From the NCBI GenBank assembly GCA_021156365.1, contig JAJNDK010000004.1:255137-319136 (forward strand): 64,000 bases of DNA, written 5' to 3'. The notes beneath the pieces are model-generated. The model saw only the letters and a program-made list of their open reading frames with translations. It was not told the DNA's origin and ran no database searches. A program made the position numbers and the translations under genes. Each line of letters opens with the position of its first letter. Position 1 is the stretch's first letter. The stretch is from Bacteroidota bacterium (lineage in GTDB: Bacteria > Bacteroidota > Bacteroidia > B-17B0 > Aurantibacillaceae). Positions 9,761 to 44,554 of this stretch are shown here, piece after piece.

Positions 9761-9779
9761 TGTATCATCGAAAGGCGAT

Positions 9780-12263: not shown

Positions 12264-12296
12264 TGGTGAAAATTAGTTCCCCAAAGGTACCAAAAC

Positions 12297-12851: not shown

Positions 12852-12855
12852 ACAC

Positions 12856-13335: not shown

Positions 13336-13356
13336 ACTTTGACGAATAGTTGTGTT

Positions 13357-13851: not shown

Positions 13852-13915
13852 GATTTTATGTTTTTATTGGTTTATAAAATGGATCATCCGATTGATCCGG
13901 ATTTATTATTTATAC

Positions 13916-25074: not shown

Positions 25075-25124
25075 ACTACTAAATGTATAGAAATAAGTCC
25101 GGAAAATATCCGGGCTTATTTCTT

Positions 25125-26000: not shown

Positions 26001-26022
26001 ATTCAAATTCTTTATTTCTTTT

Positions 26023-27045: not shown

Positions 27046-27099
27046 TTTCGTAGTTTTAAATATACTTGTTATTTCCAACGATACAAAGGTGAAATGGAA

Positions 27100-27120
27100 C
27101 TGCGCAATCGAACTGCGTAG
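27100..27120. promoter_or_regulatory. palindromic operator CTGCGCAA-N5-(C)TGCGTAG upstream of the Rnl1-Pnkp-NTase operon
   Basis: ctgcgcaatcgaactgcgtag, 55-75 bp upstream of the Rnl1 start; same motif at 33156, 33257, 37392 and 37504. Confidence 0.6.
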
Positions 27121-27274
27121 ATAAAAATAATTTGTTAAAAAAATCACGAATCACTCAAAAAAGCCTGTTTCTGAGTAATTTAAACAGCAGGCCCGGATCG
27201 GAATTAAGAATTAATTTTTGTATTTTTATGTATATACCACCGTTATAGCATCAAAACACAGCAATTCAAAACCT

Positions 27275-30519: not shown

Positions 30520-31065
30520 TTATTTCCGGACCGTATCCCATTTCCCAAAATGCTGCAGGAAGATCTTCGCAATATTCCGTGCATCATCGATCCCGCGGTG
30601 GTGTGTGCCCTCAAGTTCGATCTTTTCCATCCACAGTGCGCCTGCCATTCCGGTATGTTTTTTCAGGCCTTTGATCCCGGTGTACTGATGTTTGAGACTG
30701 ATATGCTTTTCGAGCCAGGAGGTTTCCAGTTCGTGGAGCTCGCAATCGTTCTTCAGCTGCACGCGGTCATAATGGCCCCAGCTGCAGAGCAGGTAATCTT
30801 CTGTACCAATCCAGTTTCTGAATTTTTTCAGCACTTCCGGGAATGTTTCCGCAGCATCTACCTGCTCCTGGGTGATAGTTGTGAGTTTGATGCAGAAAGG
30901 CGAAAGCTGTGTATCCAGTTTGGGTTTCACAAATGCACAGAATTCGCTTTCAATAATTTTGTTTTCGTTGATGCAAAGCGCACCGATCTCAATGATCTCG
31001 TTTTTCTTTGATGGATCCCTCGGCTCCCAACAGGAGGCTTCGAGATCGAGTATAATGTATTTCAT
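30520..31065 (-). CDS. DEDDh 3'-5' exonuclease (ERI-1/KapD-like)
   Basis: Exo I DLEAS, Exo II, Exo III H-x4-D (HHRGIDDARN); 181 aa. Confidence 0.75.
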   Translation of the reverse strand: MKYIILDLEASCWEPRDPSKKNEIIEIGALCINENKIIESEFCAFVKPKLDTQLSPFCIKLTTITQEQVDAAETFPEVLKKFRNWIGTEDYLLCSWGHYDRVQLKNDCELHELETSWLEKHISLKHQYTGIKGLKKHTGMAGALWMEKIELEGTHHRGIDDARNIAKIFLQHFGKWDTVRK

Positions 31066-31080: not shown

Positions 31081-31398
31081 TTATAATTCTTTTTCTTCTT
31101 GTTTGTATTCACAGCGAATAGCTTTGCCATAAATGATCTTCGTCCAGCCATTCTCGAATCCATGATTGTTGGCGATCAGGAAGCCTTTATTCGTGTCTGT
31201 TTGAACGATCTTATGTGCATCTATGAAACGTCCTCTCACCTTGCAAAATACAATATCACCAATTTCATAGTGTTCAGCCTTTGTAAAGGTAAGCAGCGAA
31301 CCGCTTTTTAAAATGGGTAACATAGAATTGCCGAAGCATTTCATGGAACCTGTTCCTGTATTTTCTAATTCTTCTTTTAATCGTAAATATTTATTCAT
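31081..31398 (-). CDS. stand-alone S24-family (LexA/UmuD-like) peptidase domain protein
   Basis: GNSMLP Ser motif plus downstream Lys; 105 aa. Confidence 0.5.
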   Translation of the reverse strand: MNKYLRLKEELENTGTGSMKCFGNSMLPILKSGSLLTFTKAEHYEIGDIVFCKVRGRFIDAHKIVQTDTNKGFLIANNHGFENGWTKIIYGKAIRCEYKQEEKEL

Positions 31399-31453: not shown

Positions 31454-32548
31454 TTATGGGCCGAACAGCGTTCGCAGCTGCGATGAAACGGGGCTCTCAC
31501 CGGAGATCGTAATACCATTGATCTTCGCTGTGATCTTTTCCACAAACTCCATCTCTTTGAGCTTGAACAGCATTGCATTGTCCTCCATCAGCTTCGCAGT
31601 GTTCAGAAGGCTACGTGTAGCTGCTGTTTCCTCACGACGCATGATGGTGTTGGCCTGTGCTTTTTTCTCCGCAATCAGTACCTGGTTCAGGATCTCTTTC
31701 ATATCACCTGGCAGGATGATGTCGCGGATACCACCACCGCGCAGTGCTACACCCAGTTCTTTGATACGTTCGGCAGCAGCTTCCAGGATGAAAGCGGAAA
31801 TGCTTTCTTTTTTATCCAGCAGTTCATCCAGGCTCAGCGCACCCACATACTCGCGCAGGACCAGCTGCATGATCACATAGAGTTGTTTTTCGTACTCTTT
31901 GTTATTCACCACTGCTTTCACAATGTCTTCAATGTGATACTGCACATAGAAATTGATACGCAGGCCCGCTTTGTCTTTGCTCAGGATCTCCTGGCCCGCG
32001 ATCTCCAGCTGCATCGTACGCATATCGGCACGCGTGATCACAATAGATGTGTTATTTTTCCAGAAGTAATACGAACCCGGTTCCATGATCTTCACGTATT
32101 TACCATCCATGTACATCACGGCTTTTTCACACGGCTCTACTGTATAAAAACGGATGTACTGGATCAGCTCTTTACGCATGTACAGGGATGGATCGATATC
32201 CGCACCGATCTCCGTTTTATTCAGATCCACGATTTTGAATTCCTGTATGATCAGACCTTTCCAGTATATATAAGTGCCGGGACCCAGCACTTCCATGAAC
32301 AGACCTTTTTCGTAACGCAGGGCAATCTCGTTATTTTTCACTTCAACGATATCGATAGCAGCTATGAAAGCCGGATCACGCATCAGGATATTGATGTTGC
32401 GGGGCGCAATGAATGGTTTCGCCATATCATATTCCACCAGCTCATCGAAGTAGGAAATACGATGTGCGCCTTCGGTCAGCACTGTTTTGTATTCGCCATC
32501 GGAAAATACCATGCCGATCTTACCGGCCTTTATTTTTATCTTTTTCAT
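31454..32548 (-). CDS. SPFH/band-7 (stomatin/flotillin-like) domain protein
   Basis: C-terminal SPFH core (LSLDELLDKKESIS...IKELGVALRGGGIRDIILPGDMKEILNQVLIAEKKAQA); start taken at MKKIKIKAGK. Confidence 0.65.
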   Translation of the reverse strand: MKKIKIKAGKIGMVFSDGEYKTVLTEGAHRISYFDELVEYDMAKPFIAPRNINILMRDPAFIAAIDIVEVKNNEIALRYEKGLFMEVLGPGTYIYWKGLIIQEFKIVDLNKTEIGADIDPSLYMRKELIQYIRFYTVEPCEKAVMYMDGKYVKIMEPGSYYFWKNNTSIVITRADMRTMQLEIAGQEILSKDKAGLRINFYVQYHIEDIVKAVVNNKEYEKQLYVIMQLVLREYVGALSLDELLDKKESISAFILEAAAERIKELGVALRGGGIRDIILPGDMKEILNQVLIAEKKAQANTIMRREETAATRSLLNTAKLMEDNAMLFKLKEMEFVEKITAKINGITISGESPVSSQLRTLFGP

Positions 32549-32872
32549 ATGTTTGTTTTTTCTTGTTTTTAAATTTAAAAGAAGGAATTGTTTCATTCAC
32601 CCGTGAATAGCGGAATCCTGTTTCAGTAAGCCGCTTTCGAATGGTTTTTATACAATTACAAGAAAGTCCATTGTATAAAAAGCAAAAGCTGTTGGCATAA
32701 CGGTATCCACATTCATCTGGCTTTCCACCGGTTGTTCCGTACCGCTTCCGGCGCGGAGCTGAATCAAACCATTCCTTTCTTTTTGAGCGCCATTTTTATA
32801 GAAGTCGGCATCTTCTCTTTTGAGGATCTGGAATCCTTTGCGTTTACCAGTTTCGCCACCCTGATTGCAACA

Positions 32873-32996
32873 TCAGGGGCAGGATTCGAACCTGCATGTT
32901 TGGTGTCACACTCTAACCACTGAGTTACCTGCATTGCTGCAGAACCGGATTCGAACCGGTGACCTTGACGTCATTCGTTCGTTAATCAACCGCAGC
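32873..32996 (-). pseudogene. two tandem degenerate tRNA-like fragments (D-arm plus T-arm, no anticodon arm)
   Basis: GTAACTCAGTGGTTAGAGT D-arm and GCAGGTTCGAATCCTGC / ACCGGTTCGAATCCGGT T-arms on the minus strand with incomplete acceptor stems. Confidence 0.3.
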
Positions 32997-33155: not shown

Positions 33156-33176
33156 CTACGTAACCGAATTGCGCAG
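33156..33176. promoter_or_regulatory. palindromic operator copy (CTACGTAA-N5-TTGCGCAG)
   Basis: ctacgtaaccgaattgcgcag, preceded by caaaggtgaaa as at 27086. Confidence 0.5.
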
Positions 33177-33256: not shown

Positions 33257-33277
33257 CCGCGCAAATAGATTGCGTAG
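33257..33277. promoter_or_regulatory. palindromic operator copy (CCGCGCAA-N5-TTGCGTAG)
   Basis: ccgcgcaaatagattgcgtag. Confidence 0.5.
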
Positions 33278-33284
33278 ATCACTG

Positions 33285-33355
33285 TTCTCTTAACCGGAAT
33301 CGAACCAATATCTTATCCTTAGAAGGGATGTGTTTTTCCTTTAAACTATAAGAGA
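33285..33355 (-). tRNA. tRNA-Arg(UCU), AT-rich non-canonical
   Basis: hand fold: acceptor TCTCTTA/TAAGAGA, D-stem GTTT/AAAC, anticodon loop CTTCTAA, T-arm ATTGG-TTCGATT-CCGGT. Confidence 0.55.
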
Positions 33356-33358
33356 ATG

Positions 33359-33441
33359 TTCCTCCGAACCCCGATAGTTATCGGGGCGAACTTTTGTTTC
33401 GCGGTTAAAAGCCGCGAGCTCTGCCACTGAGCTACGAAGGA
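33359..33441 (-). ncRNA. tRNA-Lys(UUU)-like gene with T-arm replaced by palindromic hairpin CCCCGATAACTATCGGGG
   Basis: acceptor TCCTTCG/CGGAGGA, D-arm GCTC-AGTGGCA-GAGC, anticodon arm CGCGG-CTTTTAA-CCGCG; the T-arm position holds GTTCG[CCCCGATAACTATCGGGG]TTCGG. Confidence 0.45.
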
Positions 33442-33455
33442 ATTTATATTTTTAC

Positions 33456-33529
33456 TGGTAGCTCCTGATTGAATCGAACAATCACTTTATGGATGTAAGC
33501 CATACATTCTGCCTTTAAATTAAGGAGCT
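33456..33529 (-). tRNA. tRNA-Val(UAC), CCA encoded
   Basis: acceptor AGCTCCT/AGGAGCT, anticodon arm TATGG-CTTACAT-CCATA, T-arm GATTG-TTCGATT-CAATC, 3' ACCA encoded. Confidence 0.6.
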
Positions 33530-33535
33530 GTTTTG

Positions 33536-33607
33536 TTGCCTTAGAAAGAATCGAACCTTCACCCTCCGGTTTATGAGACCGGTGCTCCACCCTTGAGCTA
33601 TAAGGCA
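33536..33607 (-). tRNA. tRNA-Met/Ile2(CAU)
   Basis: acceptor TGCCTTA/TAAGGCA, D-arm GCTC-AAGGGTG-GAGC, anticodon arm CCGGT-CTCATAA-ACCGG, T-arm GAAGG-TTCGATT-CTTTC. Confidence 0.65.
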
Positions 33608-33613
33608 TTTTTG

Positions 33614-33685
33614 TTGTCTTAACAGGATTTGAACCTGTAGCCTCCGACGTATCAGGTCGTTGCTCCACCTGTTGAGCTATAAGAC
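33614..33685 (-). tRNA. tRNA-Ile(GAU)
   Basis: acceptor TGTCTTA/TAAGACA, D-arm GCTC..GAGC, anticodon loop CTGATAC, T-arm ACAGG-TTCAAAT-CCTGT. Confidence 0.6.
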
Positions 33686-33691
33686 AATGTG

Positions 33692-33762
33692 AGCAGAATA
33701 TCGGATTCGAACCGCGTCCCCTGGGTGGAAACCAGGTGCTTTACCACTAAGCTATATTCTGC
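33692..33762 (-). tRNA. tRNA-Gly(UCC)
   Basis: acceptor GCAGAAT/ATTCTGC (extendable to 9 bp), anticodon arm CCTGG-TTTCCAC-CCAGG, T-loop TTCGAAT with a weak 3-bp T-stem. Confidence 0.5.
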
Positions 33763-33906
33763 ATAGTATTCCCACGGTCCCGATAGCTATCGCGAGAACC
33801 CGTGTCTGGTCATTGAAAGTGACCGATCCTAACCATTAGAAGATGGGAACATAGTTCCTCTTCTTCATTCCTTTTGTTCTTCATTTTATTAATTATTAAT
33901 CGTTTG

Positions 33907-33975
33907 CACATTCACAGGGAATCGAACCTTGTCCTGCAGTTTTGGAGGCTGCGTGGCTACCATAGCCTTGAATGT
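33907..33975 (-). ncRNA. tRNA-like gene with 9-nt anticodon loop
   Basis: acceptor ACATTCA/TGAATGT, D-like hairpin GGCTA-TGG-TAGCC, stem GCAG-CCTCCAAAA-CTGC, T-arm ACAAGG-TTCGATT-CCCTGT. Confidence 0.35.
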
Positions 33976-33981
33976 AGTGGC

Positions 33982-34018
33982 GGTTCATAAGGGTCCCGAT
34001 AGCTGTCGGGACGGACCC
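33982..34018. repeat. extended palindromic element GGGTCCCGATAGCTGTCGGGACGGACCC
   Basis: member of the CCCGATAGCTATCGGG palindrome family (copies near 33369, 33779, 34265, 34974, 35372, 41201). Confidence 0.6.
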
Positions 34019-34232
34019 TTGTCTTCCGAGCGACAGTCGGAGATAATGGCCTTTATACCAATGAACCTGGTGCTTCGATAGATGCCGATGTGATGTACAA
34101 GGCTTTTGCAAACTTCGCCTTCATTGTCATCGGGCCGCGGACTTTAACCGCTCCTTGTACACTGCGCTTTGACAAGAGCACAGCTACATTTTTCGCATCT
34201 ATCCGGCGCGCCTTTGCATGGCTTACCGTTTG

Positions 34233-34318
34233 CGGACAAAGCAGGATTCGAACCTACTGCCTGATGCCCCGATAGCTATCGGGGCAGTCAACTGCTCATC
34301 CATATGAGCTTTTTGTCC
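34233..34318 (-). ncRNA. tRNA-like gene with anticodon arm replaced by a 22-bp perfect palindrome TGCCCCGATAGCTATCGGGGCA
   Basis: acceptor GGACAAA/TTTGTCC, D-arm GCTC-ATATGGAT-GAGC, T-arm GTAGG-TTCGAAT-CCTGC; the region between D- and T-arms is the palindromic hairpin with short flanks and no anticodon stem. Confidence 0.45.
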
Positions 34319-34328
34319 AATTTTTTTG

Positions 34329-34401
34329 AGCCAGTAGCAAGCCTCGAACTTGCGACCTTCTGCTTACAAGGCAGTTGCTCTTCCCGCTGAGCTATACCGG
34401 C
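34329..34401 (-). tRNA. tRNA-Thr(UGU), GC-rich canonical-looking
   Basis: acceptor GCCGGTA/TACTGGC, D-arm GCTC-AGCGGGAA-GAGC, anticodon arm ACTGC-CTTGTAA-GCAGA, T-arm GCAAG-TTCGAGG-CTTGC. Confidence 0.65.
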
Positions 34402-34462
34402 ATTTGAAGGTGAAAACGCAGTAAGCCAGGTTTTTCCTGATAGCTACACTCAATCACCTTTG

Positions 34463-34605
34463 TTGACCCGGATGGATTCGAACCATCGCAACCCGTGTTA
34501 ATCACTGACGAAAAATCTTAATCGATTTTTATCAGAATTAACCTTGATAAAACTTGTTTCGTCAAGGTTACAAGCACGGTACTCTACTTGCTGAGCTACA
34601 GATCA
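34463..34605 (-). ncRNA. tRNA-Thr(UGU)-like gene with ~70-nt structured insertion in the anticodon loop
   Basis: acceptor TGATCTG/CGGGTCA (2 GU pairs), D-arm GCTC-AGCAAGTA-GAGT, 5' anticodon stem CCGTG plus loop CTTGTAA, then insertion 34497-34566 with internal inverted repeats (CCTTGA..TCAAGG; AAAAATC..GATTTTT), then 3' stem CACGG, T-arm GATGG-TTCGAAT-CCATC. Confidence 0.4.
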
Positions 34606-34626
34606 ATAATTCAAGGAATACAATTT

Positions 34627-34772
34627 TTTAAAAGGGCAATGAACGAACATAGTTTTGGGTTTTCGTTAACAGCGAAGTAACTATGTTCTACGGCACCTTA
34701 TTTTAAAAGGCAATAAACGGGTATAGTTTTATTTTGCGTGACAGGCGAAGTAACTATACTCTACGGCACTTT
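34627..34772. repeat. two tandem ~73-nt paralogous hairpin units (candidate small structured RNAs)
   Basis: unit 1 has inverted repeat GAACATAGTT...AACTATGTTC; unit 2 has GTATAGTT...AACTATAC; the units share aaaggcaat..catagtttt..cgaagtaactat..ctacggcac. Confidence 0.45.
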
Positions 34773-34774
34773 TG

Positions 34775-34847
34775 TCGATCTACCTGGATTCGAACCAGGG
34801 ACTTCAGTCTTAAAAGGACTGAGCTCTGCCAACTGAGCTATAGACCG
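34775..34847 (-). tRNA. tRNA-Lys(UUU)
   Basis: acceptor CGGTCTA/TAGATCG, D-arm GCTC-AGTTGGC-AGAGC, anticodon arm CAGTC-CTTTTAA-GACTG, T-arm CCTGG-TTCGAAT-CCAGG. Confidence 0.65.
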
Positions 34848-34849
34848 AA

Positions 34850-35400
34850 ATTTGAATGGGTAAAAATCGAAAGAGAACGTTTTGGCGCTCTATCCGCTGA
34901 GCTATAAGGCAATGAAATGAATATTGGTTGCCTCAATGGGATTCGAACCCATGACCTCCCGATTAAGAGTCGATCCCGATAGCTATCGGGACTTTTCTAC
35001 GACACCATTCAATGGTTTTGATGAGGAAAAAAACGTTCAGTGCTTTTGTTAACTGAGCTACTCTTCATTGCTGAAAGATTGGACTTGAACCAATGGCCTT
35101 CCCGACATTTATCGTCGGGGCGCTCTACCGAAGTATCACTTTACTACGTCACTCATCAATGTTTTTAAACAGGTAAAAAGCTGTAAAAGTTTTTTGTCTT
35201 GTGCTCTAACCAACTGAGCTATCTGCCTTTCGACAAAACCGGACTCGAACCGGTGCCCCCAAGGTTAACGATGTATCTCTTACATACGACACTGTTTAAT
35301 TTTGAAGAAAGAGCGATGGTTGCGGGAGCGTGTCTTAGAGGATTCGAACCTCTGACCTTTCGGCCTCACCATCCCGATAGCTATCGGGAGAAGTATCTCT
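34850..35400 (-). pseudogene. run of degenerate or rearranged tRNA-like fragments with palindrome insertions
   Basis: 5' half TGCCTTATAGCTCAGCGGATAGAGC (34850-34913); 3' half ..ATGGGTTCGAATCCCATTGAGGCAACCA with palindrome (34925-35012); Leu(UAA)-like anticodon hairpin CCCGAC-GATAAAT-GTCGGG plus T-arm ATTGG-TTCAAGT-CCAAT (~35060-35110); 5' half GGCAGATAGCTCAGTTGGTTAGAGCAC (~35200); T-arm ACCGG-TTCGAGT-CCGGT (~35235); element 35320-35400 with palindrome, GAAA-tetraloop hairpin and T-arm AGAGG-TTCGAAT-CCTCT. None folds into a complete cloverleaf by hand. Confidence 0.3.
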
Positions 35401-35447
35401 CCGCGAACGGCATCTTTCAATAGGTTTGTCAGGAGCAATTGCGATCC

Positions 35448-35520
35448 GCAGTGATGGAGACCTGCCGGCGGGGATTTGCACCCCGTTCCGTTTCTGCACC
35501 GGAACCCTCTCTCCTATGGA
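35448..35520 (-). ncRNA. D-armless tRNA-like hairpin RNA with TGCAAAT T-loop (candidate Y-RNA-like)
   Basis: GGAGAGA..TCTCC closing stem, stem GTTCCG/CGGAAC, T-like arm GGGG-TGCAAAT-CCCC; located ~290 bp downstream of the rsr stop. Confidence 0.35.
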
Positions 35521-35589
35521 TGGTATGCTCACCGCGATCTACGGCAACCTGACAATGTGTTTAATTATATGCTGTCAAAAGCGAAATGC

Positions 35590-35660
35590 GATGAGGGCAG
35601 GGGATACGCAATGAGGATTTGCACCTCTTCCTGATTGTAATGTCAGGACCCTTCCCCTTC
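35590..35660 (-). ncRNA. D-armless tRNA-like RNA with TGCAAAT T-loop (candidate Y-RNA-like)
   Basis: closing stem GGGGAAG/..TATCCCC, anticodon-like arm TCCTGA-CATTACAA-TCAGGA, T-like arm GAGG-TGCAAAT-CCTC; paralog of 35448-35520; ~150 bp downstream of rsr. Confidence 0.35.
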
Positions 35661-35744
35661 AATGGCGCGAAGTAGCCCTTTTCTGCGGCATTCTGGCAGC
35701 AATGTTTTTTTGTCTTTGAATAATATGTCAATGAACGAATTTCT

Positions 35745-35797
35745 TTTAAAACCTCCCTGTCTCCTTCGACAAGCTCAGGATGACGGGGGAGGAGTTT
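35745..35797 (-). terminator. rho-independent terminator of rsr
   Basis: minus strand CCTCCCCCGTCATCCTGAGCTTGTCGAAGGAGACAGGGAGG followed by TTTT; loop sequence resembles the terminator at 63065-63110. Confidence 0.6.
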
Positions 35798-35803: not shown

Positions 35804-37321
35804 TTATAATTCAATTTGTTTGATTTTTTCTACTGCACCCACACCATTTTCGATAGCGTGCAATACATCAAACACTTTGTCCGACCAACCTGCGATCAGG
35901 TGTACATCGTTTTTCTGAACGTTCAGCGGCGTGTTTCCATGGCCCGCAAGATCGAACAGGTACAATTTTGCTTTTGGCGCGATCGCTTTGTAGGCATTCC
36001 AGGATTTCTCCAGGGAAGAACCCGCATGACGGCTATCCCACAGCTGGCAGTCGGTGAACAGCATCACTTTATCCATCACCACGTTTCGTGCGATCAGGTC
36101 ATCGATCACTTTGTAACCATTGGTCGAGTAACCCACTTCACCTTCACGTTTGTAGTATTGGTCCACATTGGCCAGTACTCCGCGGTTTGGCAGGTTGATC
36201 ACTTTCCAGGTATCACCGAACATACCTGATACCACACGCTTACATTTCGACTGCATCAGCATACCCAGCATCAGGCCGATGTCGTAAAACATCACTTTGC
36301 TTTTAGCCGATACGGCTTGCTGCATCGAACCGGATACGTCACATGCTACCAGCACGGCAGTGTTCTCGTCGAAACCTTTCAGGTTCTTAACGCTTGCCAC
36401 CACTGCATCTTCCAGCGCATTCAATACCATGGTCACGAACTCCGAGTTCATCACTTTGATCTCACGGTGCGCTGCGAGGAAACGGAATGGCAACTGTTTC
36501 GAGTTTGCCACCGCAGTCTCATTCGACAGGTAAGCGCATACTTTTTTCACATGCGAAGCAGATACTTTTGCTTCCAGTATGTTACGCAGGTTACGCATCA
36601 AAGCCATATAACCAACTTTACCGCTGTCGATCAGTTCTTCCCATTTAGCACGGAAAGCTGCAGCCTTTTCTTTATCGTTGGCATATTTTGTCTGACCCAA
36701 TGCCGACAGCTCAGTTTCCCAGGTGTATGGAACAGCCAGTTCGTTCGCAGCTATTTTATTGAACACCACTTGCTGGTTCTCGTCTTTCGCTTTTGGATGC
36801 ACTATGAACAGGGCGTCACGCAATTTCACTTCCGCATCCCGATTGTATTTTGCGAACTGGTATTCATCGAAACGGTTGAAAGATACTGCCAGCCCTTTCT
36901 GGATCTGCTTCGACAGCTTATTCAGCTTTTTAGTACCGTTACGTTTGTTGGCCAGCTGGTAATATGCCAGGAGCTCGGTGATCTCATCGGCACGTTTTAC
37001 CACGCCCGATACGGTTTTACCTACCACCGCATCACCGGAGTTCAGTTTGGCCAGTTCTACCGCCAGTACCATTGGGATCGAACGCATATACATTTCGTTA
37101 CGTGCATACACTGCCAGTTTCGCTACGTATTGTGCATCGTTTTTCAACATCAGCTCACGGATACGTGTCAAACGGGTATCTGCTTTCTCATAGAAGCTGT
37201 CGTTTAGGCCCGCAGTTACTACCGCTGAGTATAGCTCCAGCTCAGGAGTCAGTTGGAATGCTTTTGCACCTTCATAGTTTGTAACTACGTTTTCTGTTTT
37301 TTTGAAGATGTTGAATTTCAT
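35804..37321 (-). CDS. rsr: Ro60-like (TROVE domain plus vWA/MIDAS) ribonucleoprotein Rsr
   Basis: 505 aa; N-terminal TROVE-like helical repeats (NYEGAKAFQLTPELELYSAVVTAGL...MRSIPMVLAVELA); C-terminal vWA MIDAS (VLVACDVSGSMQ). Confidence 0.8.
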   Translation of the reverse strand: MKFNIFKKTENVVTNYEGAKAFQLTPELELYSAVVTAGLNDSFYEKADTRLTRIRELMLKNDAQYVAKLAVYARNEMYMRSIPMVLAVELAKLNSGDAVVGKTVSGVVKRADEITELLAYYQLANKRNGTKKLNKLSKQIQKGLAVSFNRFDEYQFAKYNRDAEVKLRDALFIVHPKAKDENQQVVFNKIAANELAVPYTWETELSALGQTKYANDKEKAAAFRAKWEELIDSGKVGYMALMRNLRNILEAKVSASHVKKVCAYLSNETAVANSKQLPFRFLAAHREIKVMNSEFVTMVLNALEDAVVASVKNLKGFDENTAVLVACDVSGSMQQAVSAKSKVMFYDIGLMLGMLMQSKCKRVVSGMFGDTWKVINLPNRGVLANVDQYYKREGEVGYSTNGYKVIDDLIARNVVMDKVMLFTDCQLWDSRHAGSSLEKSWNAYKAIAPKAKLYLFDLAGHGNTPLNVQKNDVHLIAGWSDKVFDVLHAIENGVGAVEKIKQIEL

Positions 37322-37391: not shown

Positions 37392-37412
37392 CTGCGCAAC
37401 AGAATTGCGCAG
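37392..37412. promoter_or_regulatory. perfect palindromic operator CTGCGCAA-cagaa-TTGCGCAG upstream of rsr
   Basis: 71-91 bp upstream of the rsr start; 8-bp arms are exact reverse complements. Confidence 0.65.
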
Positions 37413-37503: not shown

Positions 37504-37524
37504 TTGCGCAAATAGATTGCGCAG
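37504..37524. promoter_or_regulatory. palindromic operator TTGCGCAA-ataga-TTGCGCAG upstream of the WYL regulator gene
   Basis: 51-71 bp upstream of the WYL gene start; likely autoregulatory site. Confidence 0.65.
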
Positions 37525-37574: not shown

Positions 37575-38588
37575 ATGCCCATTAATAAATTAGCCCTTGT
37601 TCGCTACAAAACCATCGACAATTGTTTACAGAACCGTTTTCGCAAATGGACGCTGGACGACCTGATGGAGGCGGTTTCCGAAGCTTTGTATGAATACGAA
37701 GGTATCACCAAAGGCATCAGCCGGAGAACCATACAGCTTGATCTGCAAAACATGCGCAGTGAGAAACTTGGTTACAATGCACCGATCGTAGTAACGGATA
37801 AAAAGTTCTACAGTTACGAAGACAAGCAGTACAGCATCACCAGTATTCCTTTAACAGAACAGGATATGGGCACGTTGAACGAAGTGTTGGGTGTTCTGAA
37901 ACAATTCAAAGGCTTTGGTTATTTCCAGGAACTTACCGGGATGGTAACCAAGCTCGAGGACAAGCTTTATAAGCAACAGCATAAAGGCAAATCATATATC
38001 GATTTTGAAAAAAACGAATTGCTCAAAGGTTTAGAGTTTATTGATCCTTTGCACAAAGCGATCATCAATCGTAAAACGATCGAGATCACTTATCAATCCT
38101 TTAAAGCGAATCAATCACAGCAGATCGTTTTTTATCCTTATCTACTGAAAGAATACCGCAATCGCTGGTTCCTCTTCGGTATGAACAGAAAAGGCAGCTC
38201 AGCGATGATCCTTGCACTGGACCGCATTGAGAAGTTCAAAGAGCTCTCCGAAAAATATGTGAAAGCACCTTTCGATGCGCACATGTTTTTCGATGATGTG
38301 ATCGGTGTAAGTAAAGCGCCCGGACAAAAACCATCAACCATTGTGATGAAGATCGACAAAGAAAATGCACCTTATGTGATCACCAAGCCGATCCATCCTT
38401 CGCAAAAGATCCTGAAGGAAGAACCCGACGGGATCTTATTCAGCATTGATGTTGTCTGGAACTTTGAGCTGGAACGTGAATTGCTTGGCTTCGGTGAGAA
38501 GCTGCACATACTTTCTCCGCGTAGGCTTGCCGGAAAAATACAATCGCGTTTGAAACACACATTACAAAAATATCAAAGAACGGAATAA
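37575..38588 (+). CDS. HTH-WYL-WCX domain transcriptional regulator
   Basis: N-terminal wHTH (LALVRYKTIDNCLQ), WYL signature (IVFYPYLLKEYRNRWFLFGMN), C-terminal WCX-like region. Confidence 0.8.
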   Translation: MPINKLALVRYKTIDNCLQNRFRKWTLDDLMEAVSEALYEYEGITKGISRRTIQLDLQNMRSEKLGYNAPIVVTDKKFYSYEDKQYSITSIPLTEQDMGTLNEVLGVLKQFKGFGYFQELTGMVTKLEDKLYKQQHKGKSYIDFEKNELLKGLEFIDPLHKAIINRKTIEITYQSFKANQSQQIVFYPYLLKEYRNRWFLFGMNRKGSSAMILALDRIEKFKELSEKYVKAPFDAHMFFDDVIGVSKAPGQKPSTIVMKIDKENAPYVITKPIHPSQKILKEEPDGILFSIDVVWNFELERELLGFGEKLHILSPRRLAGKIQSRLKHTLQKYQRTE

Positions 38589-38594
38589 TACGTG

Positions 38595-38670
38595 TCGGGA
38601 AAGCAGGATTTGAACCTGCGAACTCTCGCTTCCAGGGCGAGCGGGGACGGCCTGACTCCCCCATTTCCCG
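38595..38670 (-). tRNA. tRNA-Pro(UGG)-like, C at position 33
   Basis: acceptor CGGGAAA/TTTCCCG (C1:G72 as in bacterial tRNA-Pro), D-arm GGGG-AGTCAGGCCGT-CCCC (11-nt loop), anticodon arm CTCGC-CCTGGAA-GCGAG, T-arm GCAGG-TTCAAAT-CCTGC. Confidence 0.5.
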
Positions 38671-38681
38671 TTTTATCTTTG

Positions 38682-38755
38682 TCGATCAATGAGGACTCGA
38701 ACCTCAAACCTTCTGATTCGTAATCAGGTGCTCTATCCAATTGAGCTATTGATCG
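38682..38755 (-). tRNA. tRNA-Arg(ACG)
   Basis: acceptor CGATCAA/TTGATCG all Watson-Crick, D-arm GCTC..GAGC, anticodon loop TTACGAA, T-arm TGAGG-TTCGAGT-CCTCA. Confidence 0.7.
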
Positions 38756-38756
38756 G

Positions 38757-38832
38757 TGGTGGACAAGGGTGGGATCGAACCACCTTCTCCGGATTTTCAG
38801 TCCGGCGCATAGACCAACTCTGCTACTTGTCC
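38757..38832 (-). tRNA. tRNA-Phe(GAA), CCA encoded
   Basis: acceptor GGACAAG/CTTGTCC, anticodon arm CCGGA-CTGAAAA-TCCGG, T-arm GGTGG-TTCGATC-CCACC, ACCA 3' end; only 1 nt from the preceding gene. Confidence 0.6.
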
Positions 38833-38956
38833 ATTTCATCAACACTTTATGCAAGCCACCTTCCGGATTTTAAAGTGGCTGCTTTTGCCACTTTGAGGTC
38901 GCTATTCGCTCGGTTCAATCCGCTGCATTGACCATCTTTGCTACATTTCCATTTTG

Positions 38957-39029
38957 GGTGAGATAGGGGAATTGAACCCGTATCTGCGGCATCACAAGCC
39001 GATGTGTTGACCATTACACCAATCTCACC
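38957..39029 (-). tRNA. tRNA-His(GUG) with encoded G-1 and C73
   Basis: G-1 plus acceptor GTGAGAT/ATCTCAC, D-arm GTGT-AATGGTCA-ACAC, anticodon arm TCGGC-TTGTGAT-GCCGC, T-loop TTCAATT. Confidence 0.55.
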
Positions 39030-39067
39030 ATGTTTCAATTGTAGCAAAACGTTCGCTGCAATTGTAG

Positions 39068-39143
39068 TCGGGAAGGCTGGATTCGAACCAGCGAACTCCT
39101 GCGTCCAAGGCAGGCGGGGACGACCTGACTCCCCTACTTCCCG
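39068..39143 (-). tRNA. tRNA-Pro(UGG), paralog of 38595-38670
   Basis: acceptor CGGGAAG/CTTCCCG, D-arm GGGG-AGTCAGGTCGT-CCCC, anticodon arm CCTGC-CTTGGAC-GCAGG, T-arm GCTGG-TTCGAAT-CCAGC. Confidence 0.55.
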
Positions 39144-39172
39144 TAGTTTTTTTATCGGTCTACAAACCGAAG

Positions 39173-39267
39173 TGGGAAAGACAGTCACGCTATAGCGTGA
39201 GAACCTGCTAAGCCTTGCGGCGACGGAGTTACAGTCCGTCTCAACTCACCATCGTTGACGCTTTCCC
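39173..39267 (-). ncRNA. tRNA-Tyr(GUA)-like gene with T-arm replaced by a 6-bp/TATA-tetraloop palindromic hairpin
   Basis: acceptor GGGAAAG/CTTTCCC, class-II D-arm TCAA-CGATGGTGAG-TTGA, anticodon arm ACGGA-CTGTAAC-TCCGT, variable arm GCC-GCAA-GGC, then TCACGC-TATA-GCGTGA where the T-arm should be. Confidence 0.4.
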
Positions 39268-39274
39268 ATTTTTG

Positions 39275-39348
39275 TACCCTCTACAGGATTCGAACCTGCA
39301 CTCTCTTGTTTCTAAGACAAGCGCCTTTGCCTGTTTGGCTAAGAGGGC
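39275..39348 (-). tRNA. tRNA-Leu(UAG)-like lacking the long variable arm
   Basis: acceptor GCCCTCT/AGAGGGT, 3-bp D-stem with long D-loop GCC-AAACAGGCAAA-GGC, anticodon arm CTTGT-CTTAGAA-ACAAG, 5-nt variable AGAGT, T-arm GCAGG-TTCGAAT-CCTGT. Confidence 0.45.
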
Positions 39349-39356
39349 ATATTTTG

Positions 39357-39439
39357 CGGAAGGTATAGGAATCGAACCCTGCCCTTGTGGACCGCCCAAG
39401 ATTTCAAGTCTTGTTGTACACCATTGTACGCTACCTTCC
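39357..39439 (-). tRNA. tRNA-Ser(UGA)-like (class II length)
   Basis: acceptor GGAAGGT/ACCTTCC, D-stem GTAC/GTAC, anticodon arm CAAGA-CTTGAAA-TCTTG, long variable region, weak T-stem around TTCGATT. Confidence 0.45.
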
Positions 39440-39440
39440 G

Positions 39441-39535
39441 TTGCGGAGAATTGAGTTCCCGACACTCATCCCGACGATACTGTCAGGACACCATGCTTAG
39501 CAGGCAGGTCCGGGCCCCGCCCGGTTAATTCTCCA
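39441..39535 (-). ncRNA. structured RNA with tRNA-like closing stem (GGAGAAT/ATTCTCC) and no T-loop
   Basis: internal hairpins CCGGGC-GGGG-CCCGG and direct repeat TCGGGA..TCGGGA. Confidence 0.2.
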
Positions 39536-39542
39536 TATGTTG

Positions 39543-39615
39543 TACCCCCTGCAGGATTCGAACCTGCATGCTCTTGTGTCTGAGACAAGCGCCTTTACCG
39601 TTTGGCCAAGAGGGC
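39543..39615 (-). tRNA. tRNA-Leu(CAG)-like lacking the long variable arm (paralog of 39275-39348)
   Basis: acceptor GCCCTCT/AGGGGGT, D-arm GCC-AAACGGTAAA-GGC, anticodon arm CTTGT-CTCAGAC-ACAAG, T-arm GCAGG-TTCGAAT-CCTGC. Confidence 0.45.
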
Positions 39616-39616
39616 G

Positions 39617-39725
39617 TTGGTGGGAGGCAGGATCTTTAACTGTCAGGCGACAGAGTATCCTGCAGACAGACGGTTCTTCCACGCCCATCCGGATCTCCCA
39701 AGTGTTTCGGAAGATCTGCTCCCCG
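39617..39725 (-). ncRNA. ~105-nt structured RNA closed by a 12-bp stem (GGGGAGCAGATC/GATCCTGCCTCCC)
   Basis: internal hairpin CTGTC-AGGC-GACAG; no tRNA motifs. Confidence 0.2.
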
Positions 39726-39735
39726 TATTTTTTTG

Positions 39736-39807
39736 TTGTCAGGGATGGATTCGAACCACCGCTTTCAGAGCCAAATTCTGACGTCCTGCCAATTAGACGA
39801 CCTGACA
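39736..39807 (-). tRNA. tRNA-Gln(UUG)
   Basis: acceptor TGTCAGG/CCTGACA, D-arm GTCT-AATTGGCA-GGAC, anticodon arm TCAGA-ATTTGGC-TCTGA, T-arm GGTGG-TTCGAAT-CCATC. Confidence 0.6.
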
Positions 39808-39958: not shown

Positions 39959-40960
39959 TTATTCATCGTATTTGATCAAAAAATCCGGATTGATCGCTTT
40001 GAAGGATACACGACCCTGCAAACTGTATTTGTCTGTCATTTCCTCAACAGGCCTGATAACAATACCTTCGGCGATAGTATCTGCGTGAAGCACCGATCTC
40101 ATTTTGGATTTAGCGATTAGTTTTTCGATATCGCTTTCCAGCATGTAACCTTCCTCCAATACAGGAACCATTTTCAGCTCTAGGTCGTTCAGCAGTTGCT
40201 TTGCTTCCTTCAGTGACAAATAGCTGTAGCTATCGATCGCAAACACGTTGAAGAAATGCACATGCTGACCTTTCAGTTTGTATTTATTCTTCTGAATGCC
40301 TTCACCTATGATCTCGCCCTGCAATGCAATGTTCGAACCCAGTTGTTTCAGCTTTTCTTCCAGCTTATTTTCTACTGCAAACTTCCACATGGAATTGCTT
40401 TCGTCAAACAGCAGATCCAGGTTCCTGGAGCAAACACCGAACTCACCATCTTTGAAGTAGAAAGTAGCTGAACTACCATCTAATTTTTCGGTTACGTAGC
40501 ATGCGATCCCTTCATATTTGTCCAATACCTTCTGCAATACCTGCACCCTGGTCTCATCTGTTTTAGGGATGAAAGAAGGGAACATACCTTTTACCTCGCC
40601 TGCTAAATTCGCAGGAATTGGCGGCTCGAACTTCGTTACGCCTAAGATGTCGGTTACGTCCAGGTCTTCTTCCACCTGTATTCCTTCCGGAAGTACATTT
40701 AATGGAAAGCAGATACCCTGTGAGATCTGGCCACGCAGCCTGATGGTTTTGATCCTGTTGCTTTTTGCACGAACAAATTCAAACTCCGGCTTATCAGGCA
40801 TCACGCTATCGATCTCGCAATACACACAGAGATCATCGATGGCAAAATCACCTTTACGGATCACTAACTGCCAACCCAACACGCTTGCTTTTTCAATGGC
40901 ATCGGCGCCTTCTATCGGCTCTATATTTTTTATCCTTTGTATGGATGCTAATTTTCTCAT
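39959..40960 (-). CDS. ATP-dependent RNA ligase, Rnl5/DraRnl (DRB0094) type: N-terminal OB fold plus nucleotidyltransferase
   Basis: N-terminal OB-like region (MRKLASIQRIKNIEPIEGADAIEKASVLGWQLVIRKGDF), motif I KxDG (TEKLDGSSATFYF); start taken at MRKLAS. Confidence 0.7.
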   Translation of the reverse strand: MRKLASIQRIKNIEPIEGADAIEKASVLGWQLVIRKGDFAIDDLCVYCEIDSVMPDKPEFEFVRAKSNRIKTIRLRGQISQGICFPLNVLPEGIQVEEDLDVTDILGVTKFEPPIPANLAGEVKGMFPSFIPKTDETRVQVLQKVLDKYEGIACYVTEKLDGSSATFYFKDGEFGVCSRNLDLLFDESNSMWKFAVENKLEEKLKQLGSNIALQGEIIGEGIQKNKYKLKGQHVHFFNVFAIDSYSYLSLKEAKQLLNDLELKMVPVLEEGYMLESDIEKLIAKSKMRSVLHADTIAEGIVIRPVEEMTDKYSLQGRVSFKAINPDFLIKYDE

Positions 40961-41097
40961 ATTTACCTCCCTTGTCCTGACATTATCGTCAGGGTTTACC
41001 CCGACACTTGTCGTCGTTAATTTTGTTTTAATTTTCTTTCGCACGGGCTGCACCACCTCTCCCTCTACAGTGCAGCCCCGATCAGCTTTCGATGATA

Positions 41098-41859
41098 CTA
41101 ATTGTTATTTAAGATCCTGTGGCTCAGGAAAGCTCTGTCCTTTGTGAAGATGGGAACTTCTTTACTTACCCATCTGCTCCGGATCGCACCTTCTCTTTCG
41201 TCCCGATAGCTATCGGGATCTTTTTCGATGATCCTCCCTCTTTTGTATTTCGGTGCATAGTCGTTCCAGTTAATACCTTTCTGAAAGATCAGCTCCTGTT
41301 GCTCGTCACTGCTTTTGCCACTCAACTCTTTGTGGCTATACAGAGACTGTGCTACGGAAGCGATACTGTTCCGGGTGGTATCCTGTTGTCTCCAGATGAA
41401 GTAGTTTTCTACTTCTGCTTTGGACGGGATCTGGAACACCCTGCTGTCGAACAATGCTACCTTCTCCGGTCGCAGTTGATTGAACCTTACAGTTGCAAGG
41501 CTTGCAGACACGCTGCAGATCTTCTGGATATTTCCTTCGAACCATGCACTGGTATTGATGTCGTCAAAGTCAGTCAAAAGGATAGAGATCTCATCGGACT
41601 GTACGAAGGCAAACTTTGCACCCTGGATATTCTGGCAGAGATAAGCGGCAGTTTCATCCATGTCGTTTATCAGCTTATCATCGAAGGGTTTTTCCAAACC
41701 CCTGGTATACGTGTGAAAGGCTTTACCATCTACCCGGATCAATGTGTATGTTCTCCGCGGAATGAAGTACCGTGTCCGGTCTTCATAAAACGCTTTCATC
41801 CTGTCACCTAATGTATCTTTCATTTCTTTTTTGTTAACTGTTAGTATTTTCTGAGCCAT
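41098..41859 (-). CDS. Thg1-like protein (tRNA 3'-5' nucleotidyl polymerase)
   Basis: Thg1 catalytic region LIRVDGKAFHTYTRGL...FVQSDEISILL; start uncertain (MAQKIL or MKDTLG); contains an in-frame copy of the palindrome TCCCGATAGCTATCGGGA encoding DPDSYRD. Confidence 0.75.
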   Translation of the reverse strand: MAQKILTVNKKEMKDTLGDRMKAFYEDRTRYFIPRRTYTLIRVDGKAFHTYTRGLEKPFDDKLINDMDETAAYLCQNIQGAKFAFVQSDEISILLTDFDDINTSAWFEGNIQKICSVSASLATVRFNQLRPEKVALFDSRVFQIPSKAEVENYFIWRQQDTTRNSIASVAQSLYSHKELSGKSSDEQQELIFQKGINWNDYAPKYKRGRIIEKDPDSYRDEREGAIRSRWVSKEVPIFTKDRAFLSHRILNNN

Positions 41860-41861
41860 AA

Positions 41862-41895
41862 AAAAACCCGGGCATTTTGCGTGCCCGGGTTTTTC
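41862..41895 (-). terminator. hairpin terminator (CCCGGGCA..TGCCCGGG plus T-run) immediately upstream of the Thg1-like start
   Basis: seen in sequence. Confidence 0.5.
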
Positions 41896-42521
41896 TTGTT
41901 CAAGTGTGTTCACTTAAACCGGGACGCGATGATGCGCAAATAGTCTACTCCCGTTGGCGGGCACTGTTCCGATCTTGTCTGCCTGCCGGCAGATGGATAT
42001 CGAAAGAATGGATCGTGTATATCGTTTTTCGTTCATTTTGTTGTAAAATAAAAAAGGTCCCGAAAATTTTCGGGACCTTTCTGTAATTATTCTGTATTTA
42101 ATAATTACTCCCCGAGCGTGTACAACATGCCTGAAAACCCTTTCGGATCTAGACTGTTATGGCGGTATGTAATTACTAAATTTTGCATTTCTATTGTTTT
42201 GATGATGCAAATATAAACACAAAAAATTACTGAATGCAAATTATTTTGAAAATATTTTTTCCAAATCAAAAAATAAAACAAAGTGCTACCTCCGGATCCA
42301 TTGATAATAAAGGGAAGCATCGTCTTGTTTAAAATGAGTATAAATTTCTGACACTACCGGATTAAATTTTAAGCAAATCCATTTCAGTGATTTGATTTTT
42401 AATGATCGAATCAAAGTGAAAATAATTTCCTTTTTTCATGAAGGTATCGGGTAAAAGGATTAAGAATAGCCTGTAATCAGAAGGCTCCACACACCTGAAT
42501 ATTTTTCAGTACCTTTGAAAT

Positions 42522-44296: not shown

Positions 44297-44304
44297 GTTT
44301 TTTT

Positions 44305-44535: not shown

Positions 44536-44554
44536 TTTTTGTTTTGTAAGTATA

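Follow-up and report, generated by a model that had tools for sequence, protein, structure and literature searches.

Why a bacterial chromosome should carry a dense cluster of spare tRNA genes close to enzymes of RNA repair is the question raised by the tRNA-Lys(UUU) gene at 34775-34847 of the stretch analysed here, 64,000 nt of a 1.43-Mb Bacteroidota contig (hereafter the window; genes and RNA units are on the minus strand unless stated otherwise). A sequence-only reading had proposed that the isoacceptors of the surrounding array match known targets of anticodon nucleases and that, with a neighbouring T4-type Rnl1/Pnkp pair, they form a countermeasure to tRNA-cleaving toxins. We find that the tRNA-Lys(UUU) gene itself is ordinary and that the locus is not. 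Its best reading is a variant of the known Ro60/Y RNA repair operon with added spare tRNAs, ATP-dependent healing and sealing, and a WYL-type control site. Judged from its sequence, it is on balance probably an inducible response locus for tRNA or RNA damage built on the Ro60/Y RNA theme. The link to tRNA damage proposed earlier is thus plausible, given an RNA-repair context that recurs in relatives, whereas the specific pillars of that proposal are unsupported.

The core of the locus is conserved across the phylum and consists of a WYL regulator divergent from Ro60, with tandem Y RNAs downstream, some of which are YrlA-type tRNA mimics. In the window, the Ro60/Rsr orthologue (35804-37321; TROVE and vWA domains, Pfam TROVE 9e-29) is divergent from a WYL-WCX transcription regulator (37575-38588, plus strand; Pfam). 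Searches of species genomes gave 556 Ro60 relatives (loci compared here carry L numbers). Almost all of the best 80 bear a Bacteroidota label, with Chitinophaga/Chitinophagaceae-type metagenome-assembled genomes nearest at 73-83% identity, and WYL is adjacent and divergent to Ro60 in 57 of the 80 loci. The window, L001 and L002 are identical over the locus, so these three copies hold no polymorphism information. Added to the core here are 17 supernumerary tRNAs, about nine tRNA-derived elements, an SPFH/S24/DEDDh operon, an Rnl1-Pnkp-RlaP operon and a pair of genes for a Thg1-like enzyme and a DRB0094-type ligase.

Eight Y-like RNA units follow Ro60 (34629-35697), 107-1175 nt downstream of its stop, on the same strand and within 4 kb of it, as in the location criterion of Chen et al. 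Three are YrlA-type Y RNAs, at 34853-35011 (108.8 bits with our covariance model R1, within its training set; also placed by alignment A2 and covariation), 35019-35158 (75.1 bits, within the training set; fold) and 35166-35298 (90.4 bits, outside the training set). The first of these combines a terminal stem, the GUCGUAGA motif, a T arm, a closed acceptor-like stem and a D arm, with a palindrome inside its YUAY loop. Three further Y-like units each have a terminal stem and a 5' motif, intact or variant, with GCCGCAGA and a GAGGUGCAAAUCCUC hairpin at 35574-35697 (R1 25.8 bits), GCCGUAGA at 35420-35560 (fold, motif), and GCCGUUCG plus the palindrome at 35300-35425 (fold, motif). The remaining two, at 34703-34775 and 34629-34702 (R1 30.8 and 34.4 bits, respectively; fold), are mini Y RNAs made of a stem and GCCGUAGA without the tRNA-like module.

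With the Rfam YrlA model (RF02553), scores in the window were 38.4 bits (35166-35298), 35.9 bits (a tRNA-like core at 32889-32974, described below) and 31.5 bits (34853-35011), short of the gathering score of 69 bits, and a search of seven relatives at the Rfam gathering score returned tRNAs only and no YrlA. The 38.4- and 31.5-bit matches nevertheless trace the T arm, the closed acceptor-like stem and the D arm. We therefore built our own alignment, A2, of 28 Y RNA units from many genera, and from it the model R1. RNAalifold found 25 pairs in A2, of which 19 have compensatory changes, with 99% of cells paired. The covariation score was 0.683, against 0.199 for shuffled alignments (none of 500 reached the observed value) and 0.10-0.15 for slid controls. 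Covarying pairs make up 4/5 of the T stem and 7/7 of the acceptor-like stem, and the D stem is conserved. Helix 1, the terminal stem, is biased because stem ends were chosen by pairing; the T and acceptor-like helices are free of this bias. The A2 units thus have the order that defines YrlA, namely a T stem-loop, a closed acceptor-like stem and a D stem-loop with tRNA-like bases, and R1 gives three full-length matches in the window, at 75-109 bits, one of them from outside the training set.

A shared sequence motif accompanies this structure. The 1.2 kb that follow Ro60 hold five minus-strand copies of GNCGUAG[AU], and almost all of the 80 relatives likewise have this motif a short way downstream of Ro60 and on its strand. 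After the motif comes GUUACUUCG, which includes YUAY. Published features of YrlA are a 5' GNCGAAN0-1G motif and YUAY (PMC4201824), and the phylum-wide motif is related, not identical, to the published one. The unit at 35574-35697 is homologous to the first RNA after Ro60 in 10 relatives (L003, L005-L009, L012, L015-L017). As an observation in its own right, this first-RNA class forms a distinct Y class, in which the conserved hairpin GAGGUGCAAAUCCUC is T-arm-like, with G replacing U54.

The tRNA-Lys(UUU) gene starts 5 nt past the 3' end of the preceding YrlA-type RNA. It is canonical, being called tRNA-Lys(ttt) by ARAGORN and scoring 65.9 bits with RF00005 against a gathering score of 29. Its anticodon loop, CUUUUAA, is flanked by 5-bp stem strands (CAGTC / GACTG), has U33 and a purine at 37, and is not unusual, unlike the loops of the Pro, Leu and Gln tRNAs nearby. 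Orthologues sit after Y RNAs in four relatives (L003, L005, L006, L013), the Y RNA-tRNA-Lys pair is syntenic in L005 and L006 with 76-80% identity, and Lys(UUU) is the commonest tRNA directly after Y RNAs across relatives. The 5-nt spacing and the recurrence of the pair in L005 and L006 could indicate that the tRNAs serve mainly as RNase P/Z processing signals that free Y RNAs from a polycistronic transcript. We regard this as extremely unlikely, in that most of the 80 Ro60 loci have Y-like units and no tRNA, 17 tRNAs go far beyond any need for punctuation, and the second block of tRNA genes has no Y RNAs.

The 17 canonical tRNA genes of the window (ARAGORN) share the minus strand and fall into two blocks, 33284-34847 and 38594-39807, with the Ro60/Rsr gene and its divergent WYL regulator between them. 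Block 1 has eight genes in 1.56 kb and block 2 nine in 1.21 kb, in one orientation. Besides Lys, block 1 comprises Thr(UGU) (34328-34401), Trp (33906-33975), Gly(UCC) (33691-33762), Ile(GAU) (33613-33686), Met(CAU) (33535-33607), Val(UAC) (33456-33529) and Arg(UCU) (33284-33355), all with Rfam scores of 56-67 bits except Trp. Block 2 comprises Gln(UUG), Leu(CAG, 74 nt), Ser(UGA, 84 nt), Leu(UAG, 75 nt), Pro(UGG), His(GUG), Phe(GAA), Arg(ACG) and a second Pro(UGG). Rfam scores across the window are 54-69 bits, with the exception of Trp and Ser (ARAGORN only, no Rfam tRNA match), and the anticodon loop has the canonical 7 nt in 17/17. A tRNA array unit has been defined as at least 20 tRNA genes at a density of at least 2 per kb (PMC4758250); the 17 canonical genes stay below the first threshold and pass the second, and the count rises to about 26 when tRNA-derived elements are included. 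Together the 17 tRNAs provide 16 anticodons for 14 amino acids, mostly with U34 (Val UAC, Gly UCC, Thr UGU, Pro UGG, Leu UAG, Ser UGA, Lys UUU, Gln UUG, Arg UCU); the remainder are Ile, Phe, His, Met, Trp, Arg ACG and Leu CAG.

Several block 2 tRNAs are unusual. G37 (m1G37) would be expected in Pro and Leu tRNAs. In the odd-loop Pro, Leu and Gln genes (38594-38670, 39067-39143, 39274-39348, 39542-39615 and 39735-39807), A37 is present in both Pro(UGG) and both Leu tRNAs, C33 in one Pro (CCUGGAA), and A32/G37 in Gln. The two Leu tRNAs (UAG and CAG) have 74-75 nt, a Leu-type D arm and A73, with a variable loop of just 5 nt, so that the earlier description of two Leu-anticodon tRNAs lacking the class-II variable arm was correct, as was that of two Pro genes. 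Close relatives of the short Leu tRNAs are found in L012, L029 and L050, and also in L066, L072, L075 and L076; A37 Pro recurs in L050, L062, L066, L072, L075 and L076, and G37 is present in the Pro tRNAs of L003 and L020. More broadly, Leu tRNAs without a long variable arm (Leu-UAA included) and A37 Pro recur in Ro60-linked arrays of Flavobacterium, Chryseobacterium and Cyclobacteriaceae.

The sharing of short Leu and A37 Pro among arrays of different genera also fits a different explanation, in which the tRNAs are a horizontally acquired supplement of the L-array type that boosts or rebalances translation under stress or for particular codons, and adjacency to Ro60 is incidental. L-arrays have been described as supernumerary and horizontally transferred (PMC8421152), the mostly U34 anticodons amount to a minimal decoding set, and the arrays are sporadic and variably placed, being upstream of Ro60 in L005, L066, L072 and L076 and 9 kb downstream in L050. 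However, roughly 15-20 of 80 independent loci have tRNA arrays or small tRNA sets no farther than 10 kb from Ro60, the tRNAs of the closest relatives sit between the Y RNAs and the next inverted-repeat site (see below), and the Y RNA-tRNA-Lys pair is syntenic. Incidental adjacency is on these grounds fairly unlikely. This explanation also overlaps with the damage-response reading, because the Anabaena tRNA array is induced together with rtcB under translational stress and is thus co-regulated with an RNA ligase (PMC8421152).

A shared inverted repeat, probably a control site, suggests a connection between the RNA genes and repair. In the WYL|Ro60 intergenic region, a putative operator pair of the form CTGCGCAA-N5-TTGCGCAG lies at 37504-37524 and 37392-37412. 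A second pair (33257-33277 and 33156-33176) immediately follows tRNA-Arg(UCU), ahead of the SPFH operon, and a single site (27100-27120) lies about 55 nt upstream of the called Rnl1 start at 27045. These five sites compare with 0.34 expected in the window, and none of 100 shuffles reached five. The WYL|Ro60 intergenic regions of relatives hold two conserved copies, the Ro60-proximal one being followed by a conserved CTTTG. Further, the site before Rnl1 is at an equal position in L019, L023, L026 and L038, one lies past the tRNAs in L003, L006 and L013, matching the arrangement in the window, and many Flavobacterium loci have an extra site between Ro60 and the first Y RNA. Since the repeat marks three promoter regions, those of Ro60, SPFH-S24-RNase T and Rnl1-Pnkp-RlaP, we infer that these units are co-regulated through it and form one regulon.

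Two of these units, and a third that lies beyond the second tRNA block, encode RNA-processing enzymes. The T4-type Rnl1/Pnkp pair noted earlier is real. The Rnl1-family RNA ligase (26023-27147, called start 27045; PF09511 5e-19) has the motif I lysine (KxDG, as KMDG at residue 121), and the T4-type Pnkp (25125-26060; AAA_33 7e-20, HAD_PNKP 1e-51) has both a P-loop kinase domain (GLPGSGKS) and a HAD DxDxT phosphatase domain (DLDGT). Next to them is an RlaP nucleotidyltransferase (24010-25155) with its GS..DTD motif. The ligase is not a full-length equivalent of T4 RnlA: TIGR02308 scores 84.5 bits against a cutoff of 242.25, and the match (profile positions 31-258 of 373) is limited to the nucleotidyltransferase part, with the C-terminal tRNA-specificity domain uncovered. 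The third unit pairs a DRB0094-type RNA ligase (39959-41056; Pfam; TIGR02306 210.7 bits, above cutoff; KLDG) with a Thg1-like 3'-5' polymerase (41098-41913; Pfam, homologues). Catalytic motifs are intact in those checked, that is, both ligases, Pnkp and RlaP. Rnl1 and Pnkp occur within 10 kb downstream of Ro60 in 7/80 relatives' loci, and RlaP within the fetched flanks in eight. RtcB, RtcA and RtcR are not among the Pfam or NCBIfam matches of the main open reading frames (ORFs) scanned in the window.

The unit that follows the second inverted-repeat pair encodes an SPFH/Band 7 protein (31454-32596), an S24 peptidase-like protein (31081-31398) and an RNase T-type DEDDh exonuclease (30520-31065; all Pfam), a trio also present after Ro60 in L014. 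Between the repeat pair and the SPFH gene is the tRNA-like core at 32889-32974, which has a T arm, a closed acceptor-like stem, a D arm and a second T arm and lacks the Y stem (R1 36.7 bits, tRNA 31.7 bits). It may be a leader or processing element for the SPFH operon.

The damage response would then run as follows. Damage to tRNA, for example anticodon-loop cleavage by a ribotoxin of a competitor, a phage or the cell's own defence, or another RNA stress, would relieve WYL control at the CTGCGCAA-N5-TTGCGCAG sites. Broken tRNA ends would be healed by Pnkp, missing nucleotides restored by RlaP and the Thg1-like enzyme, and breaks sealed by the two ligases. Irreparable RNA would be disposed of by the Ro60-Y RNAs and the exonuclease, and the tRNA pool would be refilled by the co-located tRNAs.

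Several observations weigh against this reading. Most relatives' Ro60 loci are without any tRNAs, which makes the tRNAs an accessory rather than a core part. A terminator-like hairpin follows Ro60 (about 35752-35793), so a transcript shared by Ro60, the Y RNAs and the tRNAs is at most presumptive. The argument for binding of the inverted repeat by the WYL protein is one of position and conservation only, and in the window scan neither tRNA block 2 nor the Thg1-like/ligase pair has a full inverted-repeat site. Uninformative either way was a sigma-70 promoter and terminator scan of 31-42 kb, with counts at or near shuffle level and a promoter model that is unsuited to Bacteroidota. Among the window ORFs scanned, PrrC, RloC, AriB and HEPN nucleases were unmatched. 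Also, several array members, such as Phe' and Asn' (described next), are decayed or invaded, which suggests relaxed selection on part of the array.

The tRNA-derived elements, about nine in the window, bear on what was claimed earlier. The sequence-only reading had counted Lys(UUU) and Thr(UGU) genes twice each, with one of each pair altered. One copy of each is canonical (34775-34847 and 34328-34401), and the other is not a normal tRNA. In the second Lys copy (Lys', 33358-33442), which retains the acceptor, D and anticodon arms, the T arm is replaced by the palindromic hairpin CCCCGATAACTATCGGGG; it scores 24.8 bits with Rfam tRNA and is not called by ARAGORN. The second Thr copy (Thr', 34463-34605; Rfam tRNA 42.2 bits; fold) bears a structured insert of about 70 nt immediately 3' of the anticodon loop and has no homologue among the relatives' loci compared. 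Similarly, Glu' (33767-33850), in the position of an intact tRNA-Glu in L005, and Asp' (33978-34067), with an encoded 3' CCA and an intact orthologue at L005:368-442, have a palindrome in place of the T loop. The replacement begins after GGUUC in these two and takes the whole T arm in Lys', and all three retain their anticodon arms (UUC, GUC and UUU, respectively). In Asn' (34233-34318; Rfam tRNA 37.4 bits; aligned to L005:134-207) the palindrome takes the place of the anticodon loop. Tyr' (39173-39267), whose 5' part has 85% identity to the intact tRNA-Tyr at L003:4068-4152, has its T loop replaced by another palindrome, CACGCTATAGCGTG. Phe' (38845-38950) is a remnant of tRNA-Phe(GAA) with an intact 5' half, an insert of about 42 nt after the anticodon and a decayed 3' half, and a cloverleaf with a Ser(GCU)-like anticodon loop (39444-39534; fold; no ARAGORN or Rfam call) combines a long variable arm with D and T loops of non-canonical form. 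Stems of the derivatives carry compensatory changes relative to orthologues.

Other structured elements were seen alongside these. The spacer between Asn' and Asp' (34068-34232) has a strong fold (-56.7 kcal/mol), no Rfam match, and 75% identity to the equivalent L005 spacer and to L014:15507-15609. A structured RNA candidate of about 105 nt (39618-39723) has a terminal stem of 7 bp and encodes its 3' ACCA; it is recognisable neither as a tRNA nor as a Y RNA, and the loci compared contain no homologue of it. A regular-expression scan of all loci for hairpin-interrupted T loops gave 105 matches against about 74 in shuffled sequence and was dropped as too noisy. In five Chryseobacterium loci (L065, L066, L068, L079, L081; about 12,000-14,000), a repeated element, UUUGG-UUC-UUUUGC-UUCAAG-GCAAAA-CGA-ACAAA, lies downstream of Ro60 and may be another T-loop-with-hairpin design.

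The palindrome that has entered these genes is a 14-nt sequence, CCGATAGCTATCGG, forming the core of the 18-mer TCCCGATAGCTATCGGGA. Seven copies of CCGATAGCTATCGG occur in the window at up to two mismatches, against 0.08 expected, six in the RNA cluster and one in the Thg1-like ORF (33371, 33780, 33996, 34269, 34976, 35374 and 41203-41216). Lys', Asp', Glu' and Asn' carry TCCCGATAGCTATCGGGA, and two Y RNAs bear it in the YUAY loop; the palindrome of Tyr' is different. In the Thg1-like gene, the copy is an in-frame insertion of four residues (KDPDSYRDER versus K----AFEK in eight homologues). At least 120 metagenome contigs also contain the palindrome, in widely varied settings: most copies cap longer hairpins that are unrelated to one another, some seem to fall within coding DNA, and some occupy a D, T or variable loop of further tRNA-like genes. 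Copies within tRNA-like genes are all in loops and none in stems. The in-frame Thg1-like copy and the heterogeneous metagenomic contexts argue for an element spreading at the DNA level, and a designed RNA motif or regulator site, which we had considered, is less likely on the same evidence. A literature search found no description of TCCCGATAGCTATCGGGA, and it behaves as an invasive, apparently undescribed element that remodels tRNA loops.

Most simply, then, the altered copies are invaded or decaying tRNA genes and not the purpose-built resistant variants implied earlier; they are palindrome-invaded or insert-bearing tRNA genes, and the separate units near them are Y RNAs. Two facts keep a functional reading alive: the palindromes are placed in loops only, and the five invaded tRNAs are all NAN-box. 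An invasive palindrome and at least seven disrupted derivatives could also mean that the whole array is a decaying remnant without present function, its intact tRNAs merely not yet struck. This is very unlikely, given the intact scores of the canonical tRNAs (Trp and Ser excepted) and their uniformly canonical anticodon loops, the compensatory stem changes in the derivatives, the confinement of insertions to loops, and the conservation of tRNA-Lys orthologues beside Y RNAs in several relatives.

Whether the isoacceptors are tuned to anticodon-nuclease targets, the altered Lys, Thr and other copies acting as resistant substitutes or decoys that protect translation, was assessed by comparison with six other Ro60-linked arrays (65 array tRNAs; the arrays are phylogenetically non-independent). 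Tyr, Lys, Phe, Pro and Gln occur in 5/6 of these arrays and Asp, Glu, Arg(UCU) and Leu(UAG) in 4/6; NAN-box tRNAs account for 29/65, and Ala never appears. The smallest sets downstream of Ro60 are Lys (L013), Lys and Phe (L006), Asp, Lys and Phe (L056, L073), Asp (L042), and Asp and Glu (L052). The bias across the six arrays is modest. Described nucleases would suit such a set, in that PARIS AriB cleaves Lys(UUU), Thr(UGU) and Asn(GUU) (PMC12409363), retron-Eco7 PtuAB depletes tRNA-Tyr, and tRNA-Lys counters PrrC170 (PMC11555353). The recurrence of odd Pro and Leu anticodon loops (A37, C33) in other arrays points the same way, as do the loop-confined palindromes and the NAN-box identity of all five palindrome-bearing derivatives, Lys', Asn', Asp', Glu' and Tyr' (hypergeometric probability about 0.002, calculated post hoc and by hand).

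The window itself does not bear tuning out. NAN-box tRNAs are only 3/17 of its canonical set, and canonical Tyr, Asn, Asp and Glu tRNAs, exactly those disrupted, are absent from it. The sequence-only reading had listed Arg, Gln, His and Tyr in the array; the first three are present (Arg twice), whereas the sole Tyr candidate is the Tyr(GUA)-derived element. Asn', having lost its anticodon loop, cannot be a decoy for an anticodon nuclease, and Phe' is clearly a decayed remnant. The palindrome, too, is a DNA-level element and not a designed RNA module, and the ORFs scanned in the window gave no nuclease match. To our knowledge, nearly every isoacceptor is the target of some described toxin, and we therefore regard an isoacceptor match as non-discriminating, as a matter of judgement rather than of an enrichment test. 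We consider a set tuned to nuclease targets unlikely.

A further reading is a single WYL-controlled RNA module of Bacteroidota comprising Ro60, Y RNAs, tRNAs and elbow-less derivatives, in which the tRNA mimics and loop-invaded tRNAs would be anticodon-nuclease decoys or sentinels whose cleavage products induce repair. Mimics and loop-invaded tRNAs alike would keep their acceptor and anticodon arms and be unable to enter translation, which would be restored by Pnkp, Rnl1, RlaP, the Thg1-like enzyme and the spare tRNAs. Through the palindromic loop (UAGCUA), these RNAs might in addition pair with the two Y RNAs that bear the same hairpin. We hold such a module to be quite improbable; if true, it would tie bacterial Ro60 function directly to tRNA surveillance.

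The surroundings of the putative damage-response locus are those of a bacterial chromosome. Its Ro60 protein is encoded, identical in every residue, on the 1.43-Mb JGI metagenome contig of a Bacteroidota bacterium that probably belongs to the order Chitinophagales. The rest of the window holds ordinary bacterial genes, among them HrpB and DEAD-box helicases, LytTR two-component systems and a fatty-acid desaturase, and no phage genes were found among the main window ORFs annotated. A megablast search of 50,697 phage records with a 12-kb query gave no match, and a sensitive distant-mode phage search with tRNA block 2 gave isolated single-tRNA similarities only, with no synteny. We therefore reject a phage origin of the array, and with it a phage T4 framing of the locus. 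A complete type XIII retron (42785-49256; reverse transcriptase, SWIM/DEDE and WGR-HEAT proteins; PADLOC E-values 1e-184 to 1e-280), a defence system, adjoins the Thg1-like/ligase pair. An opposite-strand VIT-vWA protein lies between the SPFH operon and Rnl1-Pnkp-RlaP, and convergent with the latter is a 613-aa protein (22047-23888, plus strand) for which Pfam, NCBIfam, PADLOC and PDB sequences gave no match. An Ntox23 polymorphic-toxin domain (7.5e-30) is present in a 345-aa protein (8804-9841) 25 kb from the tRNA cluster.

The role of bacterial Ro60 and Y RNAs is largely open, and the locus bears on whether tRNAs are Ro60 clients. Here Ro60 and Y RNAs are physically joined to real tRNA genes, an arrangement that occurs in smaller form in several Bacteroidota genera, and one control site seems to serve them together with the classic enzymes of tRNA healing and sealing. 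Accessory bacterial tRNA arrays can thus sit inside repair regulons. Testable handles are available in the inverted-repeat site, the putative regulator and relatives that can be cultured (Flavobacterium, Chryseobacterium, Pedobacter).

Invasive palindromic repeats comparable to TCCCGATAGCTATCGGGA are the Rickettsia palindromic elements and cyanobacterial HIP1. Here as there, intergenic DNA, genes for structured RNAs and, in frame, a protein gene harbour a short palindrome; the one described here differs in having just 18 bp and in replacing loop nucleotides of tRNA-like genes.

Compared with L-arrays and the Anabaena trn operon, the locus has the same dense, same-strand, supernumerary tRNA genes and patchy distribution. 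It differs from L-arrays in having 17 canonical genes in two blocks that are interleaved with Ro60, Y RNAs and tRNA-derived elements, and in unusual members such as Leu without a long variable arm and Pro with A37. Anti-defence tRNAs of the phage T5 type act against PARIS, retron-Eco7 and PrrC170 (PMC11464382, PMC12409363, PMC11555353), and the extra Lys(UUU), Thr(UGU) and Tyr-derived element beside defence and repair genes resemble them; the setting here, however, is non-phage, with no cognate nuclease identified in the window. Phage T4 classically counters the anticodon nuclease PrrC through RNA repair by Pnkp and Rnl1, and RlaP, whose family includes T4 NrdC.11, supplies nucleotides to damaged tRNA ahead of ligation (PMC12776372). 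Both systems encode a bifunctional Pnkp next to a ligase of the Rnl1 family, plus an RlaP-family nucleotidyltransferase, whereas the genes here are chromosomal and apparently regulated, and no PrrC-like nuclease was matched in the window.

A close counterpart in design is the Salmonella rsr-yrlBA-rtcBA RNA repair operon, which is regulated by RtcR (PMC4201824, PMC7790460) and induced by tRNA halves (PMC7790460). A Ro60/Y RNA repair theme as such is already known (PMC7790460; also, in the passages that cite Burroughs & Aravind 2016, PMC7824862). The regulator is a WYL-WCX protein with an inverted-repeat site here and the sigma-54 CARF activator RtcR there, and the ligases are ATP-dependent (Rnl1-type with Pnkp, and DRB0094-type) in place of RtcB/RtcA. 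Eight Y-like RNAs are found here and two there, real tRNA genes are interleaved here, and the 5' motif is GNCGUAGA rather than GNCGAAN0-1G. Both loci nonetheless place Y RNAs after Ro60 on its strand, and a tRNA-like module of T arm, closed acceptor-like stem, D arm and YUAY is part of these RNAs; both contain RNA ligase and end-healing genes, and both have a divergent ligand-sensing regulator.

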